A DNA stretch of 63,034 nt, filler included, from Octopus bimaculoides (lineage: Eukaryota), in the NCBI RefSeq assembly GCF_001194135.2. It is 4 parts of 3 records of this genome, joined end to end, with 100 filler letters (N's around TTAATTAATTAA, not from the genome) between each part and the next. Parts side by side here need not be neighbours in the genome. Positions count along the whole stretch, not along the records: positions 1 to 21,616 come from NC_068981.1; positions 21,717 to 35,511 come from NC_069002.1; positions 35,612 to 44,616 come from NC_069002.1; positions 44,717 to 63,034 come from NC_069007.1. The stretch is one strand, 5' to 3'. This document shows positions 1,468 through 51,816 of this stretch, one piece after another (position 1 is the first letter of the stretch; each line of letters opens with the position of its first letter). Under the pieces are notes generated by a model. That model was given only the letters and a program-made list of their open reading frames with translations, was not told the origin of the DNA and did no database searches. The translations under genes and the position numbers were made by a program.

Positions 1468-1642
1468 GCTAGCCGCTAAACCTTTTTTTATTTTCTCTCC
1501 CTGTTTATTCCTGTGTTCCTTTCTGTTGAAGAGCATAGGCTCGAAACGTAAAAGTCTTTCTCACTTCCCGAGCATTAAACTTATACATCTGTTTGTTGTT
1601 TACACATGTCTTCGTCTTTTGTTTTTGTTTTTTGTAAATTGA
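1468..1642 (+). mobile_element. Penelope pLTR-like repeat with minimal hammerhead motif (family P1)
   Basis: Homologous to the reverse complement of 51657-51816 and partly to 17622-17690. Contains cttt-CTGTTGA-A-GAGCatagGCTC-GAAA-CG-TA-aaag. Confidence 0.65.
1519..1554 (+). ncRNA. Minimal type I hammerhead-like motif (A6->U, extra A after A9)
   Basis: Stem I cttt/aaag, stem II GAGC/GCTC, palindromic stem III ACGT, GUA site. Confidence 0.45.
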
Positions 1643-2410
1643 CACAATTTATGTTGTTTGTGTAAATACGTGTGTGCGAATGTACGCGCGATTATAGATA
1701 TATATATATATATATATAAGTGTGTGTGTGTGTGTGTGTGTGTGTGTGTGTGTGTAGATTGGTACATGGGTAGACAAATAAATATATAAACAAATAGACA
1801 GAGATAGAGGTACGTTACTTATATATAGCTAGCTCTGTATCAATCGACATTTGTATCTCTATACCATGTGTGTCTGTGAATGTGTCTTTAGTCTTACGCA
1901 ATCGTAATGGCTTTTGATGTAGAATCATAGCTGTGGTGTGTAGATTTTATTATGCGACTAGTTATGATAACTATCATTATTTTTATTAAGTATTATCTCA
2001 AAATACAGGTATTCAAAGCATATCCAGCGGCAAATTCGTCTCTCCAGCTTACGTATATAATGCAAGAAAGGACAGAAGTGAATCTCTACAAATTTTCTAA
2101 ATTCCAATTGAGATTAGGTGGGAATAGAAAGTCTTAAAGCCATAGTCTCAAAATATCCGAGAAACACCTATGAATAATCTCAAAGAAGTTTGAGAATTTT
2201 CTTAACTATAAATATTACAATTATCCTTGCGAAGGAGACGCATACGCTTCGAAATCTTGATCTGCATAAACATTTTGATAAGCTATTGAGATATAAAATA
2301 AAAAGAAAATAATAATAATAATAATAATAATAATAATAATAATAATAATAATAATAATAATAATGGTTTCAAGGTCGACCCCGGTTGAATCTGAACTCAG
2401 AATGTAGCGA

Positions 2411-2985
2411 TGACATTTGGTGGGGGCGACCCTCAAATATCACCGGGTACCTGGCCCCGGCGATCTTTAGAAAATCGGGAAAAACAAGGTCACCGACTGA
2501 CTGGGTCCATAGGGTCAAAACTGCTCGTGATCCTGCCCAATCAGTCGTGGCCTCGACCCTAACACTGAGGGGCTTGGCTCCGCCTGTGCCCAGACCTCGA
2601 TGGATGGTCTGTTCGATCCATTCTGACCGAACTCCGGGCGGTAACCCGCAGACTCAAGCCCTCGTTATTTTCTTCCCACAATATGTGGGGAGGAACAATA
2701 TAGATTCCCCCTCTAGGGGTTGGCTTGCTGCAATGCATGCTTCCTGAGGGGTGTCAAATAGCAACAACACCGTTGCGTATTTGACACCCCTAGACACAAA
2801 ATGATTCTTTACTGGCAAACATTTTACCAGCTTTTCCGTAGTTATGCTCTTGTCGAAGAGGGCGATGGCGTCACGTGACCTATAATAGGTCCTTAACACC
2901 ACTGTCCTCTTCTCAAGGTCCTCTAGTCACTGCTTGGGTGGGACTATCTCCCACTCCAAAGCAGTGGCACCGTTTTTTTGGCCAT
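2411..2985 (-). mobile_element. L1/Tx1-like LINE ORF1 relic
   Basis: ATG at 2985, then ..LEDLEKRTVVLRTYYRS..LFLPTYCGKKITR..YPVIFEGRP(P)KCHR. It ends where a zinc knuckle would start. Frameshifted, and more GC-rich than the flanks. Confidence 0.6.
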
Positions 2986-3842
2986 GTGAAAAAGTTCAAA
3001 AATAATGTCCAGAGAAAAATAAAGAAGTTTACAGGATGTCCAACGGAAAAAAAAAACAGTTGAAAAAAGTAAAACAAAAGAAGTCAAAAAAAAAAAGAAA
3101 CAAACAAAACAGTTCAAACGAAAGAAGGATAGAGAGAACACGGAAGAAAAAAAAGCACAGTTTCAAATTTTAAAACAACACAATTCCGGTTACATGTACT
3201 CCCGGCCAACTTCTTGGACTGGTACTCCACAGCTGGAACCCACAGGGGACAAATCTTCGGCCATGATATGAGCCACAATAAAAACATAGCAACTGGAATA
3301 GACCTCTACTTTCAAATTTTCGGACGAGGATACGCCCCCAAAGTTTTTTACAACAAGCAAAAATTAACACAACAATGTAATAGCTGCCGAGAGCAGGCGA
3401 AATTGTCCCAGAGCTGGGTAAAATTTACTCCAAAAAAGTACAACACAATAAATTTCCTCCATCTCAAATAAACAAATCACCTACCTCGACGGACTTCTCC
3501 TTTTGGTCTTGCTTTTCAATTTTAGGACGGAGCTCACAAGCTCACACCCTGCTCGATCAGACGCAAGAAGCAAACACAAACACAAACACGCATGCGCAGG
3601 AAGCAAGCTTTTTACCACACAGCCACGCCTGTGCCTCCACACAGCCAAGCTTGCACCTCCACACAGCCATGGATCTGTATATTCCAGGTTTAGTATTCAT
3701 ATGATATGAGACTTAAAAATCAGTGTAACTACTATGAGTAAAAAGGACATAAATTTAAATGGGGAGAAGTAATCTGAGGTGAATGGTAAGTTTTTCTTAC
3801 TACATTGACAACAAAGGGTAAAAACTAAATTAAACATGTATA

Positions 3843-4485
3843 GGCGTAGGAGTGGCTGTGTGGTAAGTAACTTGCTTACGAACCACATGGTTCGGGTTCA
3901 GTCCCACTGCGTGGTACCTTAGGCAAGTGTCTTCTGCTATAGCCTCGGGCCGACAAAAGCCTTATGAGTGGATTTGGTAGACAGAAACTGAAAGAAGCCC
4001 GTCGTATATATGTATATATATATATATATATNNNNNNNNNNNNNNNNNNNNNNNNNNNNNNNNNNNNNNNNNNNNNNNNNNNNNNNNNNNNNNNNNNNNN
4101 NNNNNNNNNNNNNNNNNNNNNNNNNNNNNNNNNNNNNNNNNNNNNNNNNNNNNNNNNNNNNNNNNNNNNNNNNNNNNNNNNNNNNNNNNNNNNNNNNNNN
4201 NNNNNNNNNNNNNNNNNNNNNNNNNNNTATATATATATATATATATATATATATATATATATGTGTGTGTGTGTGTGTGTGTATATGTGTTTGTCCACCC
4301 AACATCGCTTGACAACCGATGCTGGTGTGTTTACGTCCCCGTAACTTAGCGGTTCGGCAAAAGAGACCGATAGAATAAGTACTAGGCTGACAAAGAATAA
4401 ATCCTGGGGTCGATATGCTCGACTAATGGCGGTGCTCCAGCATGGCCACAGTCAAATGACTGAAACAAGTAAAAGAGTAAAAGAG
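3843..4485 (+). mobile_element. tRNA-derived composite SINE (family A), full length
   Basis: Head ggcgtaggagtggctgtgtggtaag..gggttcagtccc (A/B-box-like), CORE-like ggcaagtgtcttct, internal (TA)n/(TG)n plus gap, 3' module ending (aaagagt)n. About 18 copies or fragments in the window. Confidence 0.85.
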
Positions 4486-4944
4486 AATGTTGAGCGTTAT
4501 TTGAATTTCAAATCTTTGTTAAAAATTTTGGGAACATTAGGTTCATATAATTGATTTAAGAACGCCAAGTACAAGGTTACATCGATATTAAAAAGATGGA
4601 AGAGGAAGATGGCTGTTTTCTAATTTTGAATTCAGATTATAAGACTAATGATTAAATAACATAGGGTGTAATTTATTTTCACACCGCTGATTATACTTCT
4701 CTACCACACTAATAGAAATATTGATTGAAGCTATGCATTTTGGGGACGATTTAGTTAACTGCACTAGAAATTATTTTACCGATTCGGTATGGTTGAAAAG
4801 CAAAATCGATTTATATGTGACTGGAAAAATATGAATCTACATTAAAAGTTTGATCGTCATACCCGTTACTTAGAATTTAAACATATATTCCAGGGTACAT
4901 ATACAAATGCAGACACCCACAAACACACACGCATACACGCATAA

Positions 4945-49800: not shown

Positions 49801-50268
49801 ATGCATGTGCGTGTATATTCTAAGTGTGTGAATAAATGTACGTAAATTCACATACATATATATGTGTTTATATATAGGAATATACATAGACGTGCATATA
49901 TATATATATATATAGAGAGATATATAGATATATGCATAATATGTCTTCGTTATATAGAGAGAGAGAGAGGAGGGGAGAAATGAGCCATGAATAGTTTCGT
50001 GCTTTCAGATACACGGCATGTTATATAATTGTGCTGAATCAATGTATCTTACAGCATGAAACTATTTGTAACTCCATTGTAATTGTATACATTAAATGAT
50101 ATTTATCCCTTGCTGGATGCCGTACGTTTTTTGTCGACCTTCCCTATAATGAAACCGGAATTTATATGTGTGTGTGTTTGTGAGAGAGAGAAAGAGAGAG
50201 AGAGAGGAAAAGAGGGTTTCAAACTTTACTACTACTATTTCCAATAGTATCATTATTGCTATCATTAC

Positions 50269-50468
50269 GGCGGCGAGCTGGCAGAAACGTTAGCACGCCG
50301 GTCGAAATGCTTACCGGTATTTCGTCCACCGTTACGTTCTGAGTTCAAATTCCACCGTGGTCGACTTTGTCTTTCATCCTTTTGGGCTCGATAAATAAAG
50401 TACCAGTTGAACATTGGATTCGATGTAATCAACACCCCACCCACAAAGTCGCTGCCCTTGTGGCAAAT
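50269..50468 (+). mobile_element. SINE family B
   Basis: ggcggcgagctggcagaaacgttagc.., tail gctgcccttgtggcaaa. Confidence 0.85.
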
Positions 50469-50529
50469 GATTATTATTACTATTATTATTATTATTGTTG
50501 TTGTTATTATTGTTTGGCTTTTGCCTTGT

Positions 50530-50805
50530 ATTTTTACTCTAAGTCTCACCCAGAGACCTCAAGAGACAAGTTAGAAATTCAAGCTAGTACTATTACTAGG
50601 CTTCCATATATTTGGCTTTACACAGAGTATTGTTCTAGAGAATGTCTGTCAAAATATAAGTCAATTAGTAATTTGTTTTAAAAGTAATTTGATAATATGA
50701 TAAAGGTAGCAATCAGCTCATTTTGCTATCATTCCTAGGGCACCTATGACAACAGGTATTGTTTTAGTCTTCAGGTTCCACATTTTGCCAATTTTTATTT
50801 CAAGG
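50530..50805 (-). mobile_element. R4/Dong-like LINE 3' end
   Basis: LEIKIGKMWNLKTKTIPVVIGALGMIAK*ADCYL, then 3' UTR tctcttgaggtctctgggtgagactt and a (TAA/CAA)n tail. Confidence 0.75.
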
Positions 50806-51656
50806 CGGTGTATGTATATATATATATATATATATATATGATATACATATATATACATACACGTACATATATATATATATAGAGAGAGAGGGGGGAGAGA
50901 GGGGGAGAGAGAAAGAAAGAGAAAGATATACATACATATACACGTATAAATAAGCGCACGCTTGCATATGCATGTAATACTGGTGTGTACGCACCTTTCT
51001 ATTTGTGTATCGGAATATGGCCCATGGATTTTATTGAGTTAGGTTTGCTAGCAGTATTGATGCTTTTGAGTTGACTTATTTTCGTGGTGGCATTTAAAGA
51101 TATTCTCCATCTTGTGTTTAAGATATTCGATGTGTGGGTTAGGAGGATATTTTTATCATTACAAAGGCCACAGAACTTCATGCAGGAGTTATACTTGATG
51201 TTGAAGTGCAGTATAAAGAAGGTGATATTAAACTTGTGATCTTTAAATTGCCATTTGTGGTTTAACTGCTCTTTTTTTGTCCGTACAACTGATTCTGCTC
51301 TGCATAAATTTCAAAAAGAATATATATTTTCGTTTTGGTAGTTGTAGGTTATTTCGTCTTCCTACCTAGACTTGCAGGATTATCCTGGTAAGTCTACGTA
51401 GAATTGGTTTATGCGCTCGCCACCTGATAGCTTGAAATAATTTTGCATTGGTTTAATGGTTCCGAATCAGCTTTCGAAAGTTCTCGGATATGTTTGACGT
51501 TACATCAAAAATAAATGGTGAGGTTGAACAAAAGGATAATACAGGAACAGCTTCACAGCTTCTGTTTTCGTTTACAAGTTGATATAGTTTGCGGATAAAA
51601 AATTAAGCTTTCCTTTTTCATGAATCTAATCTAATCTAATGTGGTAGATTACAATG

Positions 51657-51816
51657 GAGTTACAAAAGACGAAGACAGGTGTGTAAACAACAAACAGGTG
51701 TATTAGTTTAACACTCGGAAAGGTGAGACAATCTTTTACGTTTCGAGCCTACGCTCTTCAGCAGAAAGGAATAAGAGAAAATAAACTGAGAATAAAAAAA
51801 AGCTTTCGTAGCTAGC
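51657..51816 (-). mobile_element. Penelope pLTR-like repeat family P1
   Basis: Reverse-complement homologue of 1468-1642. Confidence 0.7.
51733..51768 (-). ncRNA. Minimal type I hammerhead-like motif (A6->C, extra A after A9)
   Basis: cttt-CTGCTGA-A-GAGCgtagGCTC-GAAA-CG-TA-aaag. Confidence 0.6.

Follow-up and report, generated by a model that had tools for sequence, protein, structure and literature searches.

The search for ribozyme motifs in a 63,034-nucleotide stretch of the Octopus bimaculoides genome (the window, made of four parts of three records joined by filler) revealed six credible type I hammerhead motifs at six sites, coming from four to five families, and one decayed mirror arm. 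[quoted passage not shown] The window is AT-rich animal DNA with many microsatellites and repeats, and contains 5,992 N in 27 gaps and 57,042 non-N bases. Motifs are named by the position of nucleotide C3 and the strand, whereas a preliminary description of the window, which had listed five well-formed and four decayed hammerheads, gave the lowest coordinate of each.

1519..1554, plus strand: minimal type I hammerhead of Neptune-type architecture (1523+), GUA site at 1550, U at position 6
14144..14181, minus strand: mirror arm of 14194-14230 with decayed core, not an independent insertion
14194..14230, plus strand: hammerhead with intact core and 4-bp stem I (14198+), stem II broken, stem III palindrome damaged
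14388..14448, minus strand: hammerhead with intact core (14443-), in which stem I has 5 bp, stem III is a quasi-palindrome of 9 nt and the base of stem II has only 2 bp; GUU site at 14393
26537..26621, plus strand: hammerhead with intact core (26541+), combining a 4-bp stem I with a long stem II and a stem III that is a perfect 8-nt palindrome; AUA site at 26617
38091..38163, plus strand: type I hammerhead of canonical type with intact core (38098+), in which a 7-bp stem I accompanies ACCGGU as stem III; GUC site at 38156
51733..51768, minus strand: second copy of the 1523 family (51764-), C at position 6, abutting an N gap

The main type I descriptor required CUGANGA, GAAA and NUH, a minimum of 4 bp in stem I and of 2 bp in stem II, and self-complementarity in stem III, and the chance level was taken from 200 dinucleotide shuffles made block-wise in 500-nt blocks. 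With the strict core, three matches were found (26541+, 38098+ and 14443-) for a shuffle mean of 0.025, and none of the 200 shuffles reached three. Allowing up to one core mismatch added 1523+ and 51764- (five matches; shuffle mean 0.49; five reached in 0 of 200), and six matches were obtained when any stem III and one mismatch were accepted, a number reached by 2 of the 200 shuffles. The preliminary description had listed a match density equal to that of shuffled sequence among the outcomes that would count against it, and the density found was higher. The core CUGANGA...GAAA...UH is present in 26541+, 38098+, 14443- and 14198+; the last has a relaxed score of 18.5, and 40 shuffles average 0.88 matches at 18 or more. 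Five of the six motifs stand well above chance, and most copies are damaged and predicted not to fold.

All five motifs that had been called well formed were recovered in place, but 1523+ and 51764- lack A6, and 14443- has a stem II base of only 2 bp. The total of nine shrinks to six credible motifs, and the nine were not independent, since 1523+ and 51764- are one family and 14144-/14194+ one palindrome. Among the four described as decayed, 14194+ corresponds to the credible 14198+ with its intact core, 14144- is the mirror arm, and 18238- and 28517- are indistinguishable from chance. The latter two were discounted because their scores equal the shuffle level: 18238- has a relaxed score of 14.5, and 40 shuffles yield about 16 matches per window at 14 or more, while 28517- scores below 11, a level at which they yield about 75. 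Five further hammerhead-like strings (37470-, 40092-, 19546-, 28151+ and 43150+) were not accepted, having mismatched cores and a signature at chance level. GAA followed by a 6-10 nt palindrome showed no enrichment in the window (8 observed, 6.1 expected, 8 reached in 65 of 300 shuffles).

That the motifs as a whole are chance matches in AT-rich repetitive DNA is extremely improbable. Chance does account for 18238- and 28517-, and it would fit a post hoc descriptor and the lack of Rfam matches at gathering score, but it does not explain the 0 of 200 shuffles with three strict matches, a tandem family whose variants preserve its stems, or the position of 26541+ behind a PLE open reading frame (ORF). 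For the three strict matches, the chance reading is refuted.

When flanks were included in the fold prediction, stems I and II formed in only one of the six motifs, 38098+, the other five lying 3.3-37.6 kcal/mol above the minimum. Stem III self-duplex energies across the motifs ranged from -1.7 to -11.3 kcal/mol, as computed values only.

Family data were obtained for 38098+, which lies in a tandem repeat with the following parts.

37918..38343, plus strand: retrozyme-type unit of 426 bp, 37% GC
37743..37917, plus strand: partial upstream unit of the tandem repeat, 89% identical to 38169-38345, starting about 12 nt past the cleavage-site position

No ORF of at least 90 aa was found inside 37918-38343. 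The locus 37743-38343 comprises 1.4 units with one ribozyme, as the partial upstream unit begins after the ribozyme. Four of 24 sequencing runs were mapped on 37918-38345 at 80% likeness, and the contigs that matched the family numbered 747 in organism A and 1,077 in organism B. Several contigs run from the unit end back to the unit start, 425-426 back (38342 and 38343 to 37918 in run X12; 38305, 38327 and 38342 to 37918-37933 in run X1), so that in two species the 38098 family forms head-to-tail repeats with a unit of about 426 bp. In the window copy the stem II base is an A facing an A; among the listed variants, the common 38146 A>T (63% and 43% of depth) supplies the base pair missing there. 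A second variant, 38115 G>A, converts a G-U to an A-U pair, and the other common variants (38110, 38123, 38127 and 38141) fall in predicted loops. Two-base insertions in the middle of stem III, seen in RNA reads, stay self-complementary, with duplex energies of -11.4 and -9.8 against -8.3 kcal/mol.

Stems I and II of 38098+ are predicted with probabilities of 0.67-0.99 at all three flank lengths, the ribozyme fold lies 2.5 kcal/mol above the minimum, and a rough sum of computed energies puts the dimer 3.3 kcal/mol ahead. As a circle, the 426-nt unit would be 64% paired (z = -1.66). In a local Rfam search of 171 nt, 38084-38176 aligned with Hammerhead_HH9 (RF02275, clan CL00010) at 19 bits (gathering score 52; E 0.016). 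Stem I, the core and the stem III flanks align, but 38098+ carries a 34-nt insertion in stem II and, with a score under gathering, is not a member of that family.

By its sequence features, the assignment of the 38098 family to the non-LTR retrozymes is supported. Like those of animals, it has a head-to-tail unit, low GC, one type I hammerhead per unit and PLEs alongside (PMC7229834; bioRxiv 10.64898/2026.07.22.740005). Retrozyme units measure 150-450 bp, those of mussel 350-390 bp (PMC7229834). Unlike them, the window locus has only 1.4 units with one ribozyme, an unusually long stem II and no abundant RNA in two libraries.

These two cDNA libraries, of unknown selection, contained 118 of 12,895,792 and 88 of 11,974,664 records matching the 38098 family on both strands, about 7-9 per million. 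None of these reads was at least 99% alike to the window copy, and 83% and 74% of them continue into unrelated sequence. RNA ends at the predicted cleavage site, suggested by the preliminary description as a check, did not accumulate: no pile-up of read beginnings or ends was seen at 38156/38157 or at any other place on the mapped unit, and loose ends of 10, 12 and 9 reads cross the site, although a depth of only about 10-30 and a library type that may miss circles make this a weak test, so that circular RNA is possible. The reads are read as passenger transcription of other, uncut copies.

That some copy, with 38098+ the best candidate, still works today, cutting host transcripts or giving circular RNA at this locus, is unlikely, though conceivable. 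The intact core, GUC site, 7-bp stem I, predicted fold in context and computed preference for the dimer would suit such activity, and retrozymes of mussel and axolotl are expressed as circles (PMC7229834). However, a locus of 1.4 units with one ribozyme cannot release a unit-length monomer, its stem II base is mismatched, and neither a nearly identical RNA read nor an accumulation of ends was recorded at that low depth.

Two observations were made on the same locus. The idea of another hammerhead inside stem II of 38098+ (GAAACGUA at 38127) was dropped, as 38127 is C in nearly all of the organism B depth. Run X22 showed A>G at 25 places on 37918-38345, compared with 12 in X21 and 7-8 in DNA runs, which may reflect A-to-I editing of the repeat RNA or merely different copies.

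The sole motif found behind a PLE ORF is 26541+.

26031..26420, plus strand: C-terminal half of a PLE GIY-YIG endonuclease, 5'-truncated and frameshifted, reaching to the stop codon (frame 25974-26420)
26013..26030, plus strand: 18 bp that repeat the 3' half of the 26541 ribozyme without a mismatch and run straight into the endonuclease fragment

The ribozyme sits 120 nt 3' of the endonuclease stop, which is the standard 3' position in PLEs, and its fold lies 6.9-14.1 kcal/mol above the minimum. The fragment is 54% identical to residues 714-800 of P0029, an 806-aa protein with reverse transcriptase (RT) and GIY-YIG domains, and 66% identical to P0026. A full HMMER search gave 436 relatives at E up to 0.001, while the fragment had no match in Pfam, in the word-index search or in Atlas; P0029 as a query had no relative among metagenome contigs. 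The preliminary description had seen PLE relics as possible autonomous partners of the hammerheads. A GIY-YIG relic does sit with 26541+, but it is the element itself and not a partner.

The 18-bp copy at 26013-26030 breaks off 2 nt ahead of the position that corresponds to the 26617 cleavage site, and the coding similarity begins right after it. As far as one junction can suggest, this arrangement fits a partial tandem that would have arisen when copying switched templates and landed on a 3' end cut by the ribozyme. The 3' half of another minimal hammerhead may lie at 25975-26012 on the minus strand (GAAACGUA at 25995), truncated where the 26013 junction begins. A weak GIY-YIG C-terminal relic was also seen at 54233-54476 on the plus strand (independent E-value, iE, 0.0015, profile of the endonuclease set).

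The motifs 1523+ and 51764- are two copies of one family, and a third was found in the window.

17617..17693, plus strand: third copy of the 1523 family, 5'-truncated and without ribozyme, between microsatellites, 79-88% identical to the other two
20768..21611, plus strand: frameshifted PLE RT relic, Neptune-like, its 3' end running into an N gap

The 51764- copy is 82% identical to 1468-1622 over 160 bp, with 2 of 36 columns differing in the motif and 18 of 114 in the flank (Fisher p 0.09). The architecture of 1523+ consists of a 4-bp stem I, an extra A after A9, G10.1-C11.1 and a loop-less ACGU stem III, and it is not predicted to fold with flanks of 30-80 nt. Neither copy is well formed, because the conserved A6 is replaced, by U in 1523+ and by C in 51764-. 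Either the same base decayed twice, or the core of the family is a variant one; a natural A6C hammerhead variant cleaves slowly, at <0.1 per min (PMC3088659).

For comparison, 80 Neptune loci were taken from metagenome contigs, of which 38 contain the end of the ORF and 31 extend 250 nt or more beyond it. The descriptor matched 83-200 nt past the ORF end in 7 of the 31 loci; inspection by eye found the motif in 20, a damaged form in 4 and none in 7. When 1523+ and 51764- were aligned with six motifs from these loci, the same architecture was observed, with both-side changes in 7 of 8 pairs. The short stem I, the extra nucleotide after A9, G10.1-C11.1 and the palindromic 15.2-16.2 are all present in both window copies. 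Among the Neptune loci, L005 has (near-)identical ribozymes at its two ends in direct orientation, at 1028 and 4094, about 3.07 kb apart, and L010 has them inverted at 1087 and 3582; together they represent both standard pseudo-LTR (long terminal repeat) arrangements.

The RT relic at 20768-21611 matched RVT_1 at E 0.00046, under the curated cut-off, and was 43-56% identical to 25 RT proteins, which have a Cys-rich linker plus GIY-YIG at the C-terminus. No hammerhead was found beside it, and it has no physical tie to the 1523+ and 51764- copies. In the window as in the related Neptune and C-terminal-endonuclease PLEs, a ribozyme lies 80-220 nt past the ORF; the C-terminal-endonuclease PLEs with a Cys linker are probably Nematis-like. 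Unlike Neptune and the other PLEs of this kind, the window offers broken fragments only, with no full-length or intact element. A weak GIY-YIG C-terminal relic was noted at 51110-51271 on the minus strand (iE 0.0025), about 460 nt downstream of 51764- on the same strand.

The remaining two motifs, 14198+ and 14443-, lie in fold-backs about 80 bp apart.

14099..14265, no strand assigned: decayed fold-back, a 167-bp palindrome with 6-nt central loop, a hammerhead unit in each arm and 3' tails outward
14348..14500, no strand assigned: fold-back with perfect arms of about 50 bp beside (TA)n, a ribozyme unit with an inverted 5'-truncated copy ahead of it

In both, an inverted copy precedes a unit of 75-105 nt made of ribozyme and tail, and the tails face outward; their stems III are related and their tails are not. 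The two arms 14144- and 14194+ align with a score of 79 (shuffle maximum 24), and the inverted copy in 14348-14500 breaks off within stem III. The ribozyme fold is 32.9-37.6 kcal/mol worse than the hairpin for 14198+ and 24.9 kcal/mol worse than that of its fold-back for 14443-. As the hairpins win by 25-38 kcal/mol, a read-through transcript would be double-stranded RNA and not a ribozyme. Inverted 5'-truncated copies next to the 5' end, together with partial tandems, are a typical PLE structure (PMC8557442).

These fold-backs might instead be an element of their own, similar to a miniature inverted-repeat transposable element and moving as a palindrome, and not one-off inverted PLE insertions; we regard this as improbable. 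In its favour are the adjacency of the two, the perfect arms of one beside (TA)n, and the presence elsewhere in the window of several fold-backs measuring 230-680 bp, among them one built of head-to-head tRNA-like units. The two differ, however, in inversion point and in tail (602 of 1000 shuffles score as high for the tails), and inverted 5'-truncated copies are a standard product of PLEs (PMC8557442). A common 3' tail of the hammerhead fold-backs and the tRNA-like fold-back was rejected, since 64, 602 and 419 of 1000 shuffles scored as high.

The tRNA-like fold-back at 60501-60863 is a near-perfect palindrome of 363 bp with two head-to-head units (27.7 and 25.4 bits with the Rfam tRNA model, for which the gathering score is 29), whose 5' ends point inward and tails outward, as in the hammerhead fold-backs. 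It is possibly a short interspersed nuclear element that the same machinery, with its tendency to invert, has copied; no tRNA gene was predicted by ARAGORN. Other fold-backs or nested inverted repeats, 230-760 bp long, were located at 6939-7169, 35645-36401, 37124-37742 and 43080-43566, with no accepted hammerhead inside, and each arm of the last ends at a GAAAC string.

The link to PLEs and non-LTR retrozymes that the preliminary description had drawn was thus supported on three counts: 38098+ is part of a tandem 426-bp family, 26541+ follows a PLE endonuclease stop, and 1523+ and 51764- are Neptune-like in architecture. For 1523+, 51764-, 14198+ and 14443-, PLE origin is likely as judged from their architecture. 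Following the published models of dimer cleavage, circle formation and mobilisation by PLE RT (PMC4209133; PMC6765202; PMC7761336), the source elements would have carried the ribozyme near their 3' end, and in a tandem transcript two ribozymes would pair via the palindromic stem III and cut at NUH. In the case of the retrozyme, freed monomers would be ligated into circles and copied back by the PLE RT into AT-rich targets. PLE copying is expected to leave 5'-truncated, partial-tandem and inverted copies, which would explain that the 3' part with the ribozyme survives and that two motifs lie in fold-backs. The copies in the window would since have decayed, their transcripts being passengers in host RNA.

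The descriptor was composed after the motifs had been seen, and the Rfam search of the window gave 0 matches at gathering score, an absence expected for minimal or long-stem variants. Several points weigh against the origin from PLEs and a retrozyme. Family data cover only one of the four to five families (that of 38098+), where conservation of the core was judged among the listed variants, with 82 further variant rows beside them, and where the RNA ends did not pile up at the cleavage site. In the 1523 family, A6 was lost by different changes in both copies, for which simple decay is a poor explanation, and covariation in the Neptune alignment is partly circular, as the motifs were picked by a pairing descriptor. 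No PLE ORF is attached to 1523+, 51764-, 14198+ or 14443-, and none lies directly upstream of them. Insertion of the PLE Poseidon in vitro was unaffected by ribozyme mutants, and no RNA-seq ends were found at the site (PMC11167929). The slow in vitro cleavage of PLE ribozymes (PMC4209133) counts against a strong functional reading, and what the hammerhead contributes to PLE transposition is described as unclear (PMC8557442).

Intact-core motifs occur in the window at 53 per Mb (3 in 57,042 bases; 95% interval 11-154), and inclusion of one-mismatch matches raises this to 88 per Mb (5; 28-205), both values coming from a single window selected for richness. Published hammerhead totals for animals correspond to a few per Mb. 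They include about 9,000 minimal motifs in Xenopus tropicalis and about 4,000 in coelacanth (PMC4209133). Mussel has about 5,000 hammerheads and axolotl about 120,000 (PMC7229834); for giant squid, the figure is 235 loci of Rfam hammerhead-1 (PMC6962438). The window density looks high beside these totals, but the descriptor differs and the window was chosen for its richness.

A true hammerhead hotspot, in which PLE-mobilised elements insert into or beside each other in AT-rich DNA and the window is far richer than the genome, is a possibility of some weight, though still doubtful. It would agree with the density of intact motifs, with the closeness of two fold-backs with related stem III, with the tendency of PLEs to insert next to earlier copies (PMC6765202) and with the summed contig depth of the 38098 family, which suggests only hundreds to a few thousand copies, depth not being copy number. 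Against it, the motifs are dispersed across 50 kb and belong to unrelated families, and the window was picked as a rich one. Such a hotspot concerns spacing and is compatible with the favoured origin from PLEs and a retrozyme.

A broader claim, which we consider rather unlikely, is that this genome carries intact-core hammerheads at tens per Mb, above published animal counts, in many PLE and retrozyme families, including the 75-105 nt fold-back units and a family without A6. Insertion junctions at the cleavage site (26013-26030 and near 37743) would then be a fossil record of ribozyme-cut RNA ends used as PLE templates. The window offers one or two such junctions only; if the junctions of many copies piled up at the cleavage site, the role of the PLE ribozyme would be testable by sequence alone.

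The findings extend a known and ordinary feature of invertebrate genomes. Like the minimal hammerheads of metazoan PLEs (PMC4209133), the window motifs show a stem I of 4-5 bp, an extra nucleotide after A9, G10.1-C11.1, a loop-less or palindromic stem III and many unrelated families per genome, mostly as dispersed singles with some inverted pairs 100-700 bp apart; in pseudo-LTRs, too, minimal hammerheads are reported mostly as dispersed single motifs with some inverted pairs (PMC4209133). They differ in that the 1523 family lacks A6 and in that 26541+ has a much longer stem II with an 8-nt stem III palindrome. Repeat families that have expanded in coleoids include Penelope (PMC8967140; PMC13282606), and the word ribozyme is absent from both papers. 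No cephalopod retrozyme or PLE hammerhead family was found in the open-licence literature searched, where supplementary species lists may include cephalopods. Both PLE minimal hammerheads and non-LTR retrozymes are thereby extended to this genome, and a defined retrozyme family, present in two species, becomes available for assays. With exact patterns of two of the families, 0 matches were obtained in viral and prokaryote genome contigs.

In the whole-window Rfam search by E-value, no hammerhead was present among the best 150 of 249 matches, which were mostly microsatellite-driven microRNA models. A Tc1/mariner DDE_3 transposase relic was identified at 23512-23847 on the plus strand (E 4.5e-10). 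At 40060-40135 on the minus strand, a CCAAUGA box, a hairpin and GAAACCGGU could represent a hammerhead-derived repeat with variant core, one copy being indistinguishable from chance.

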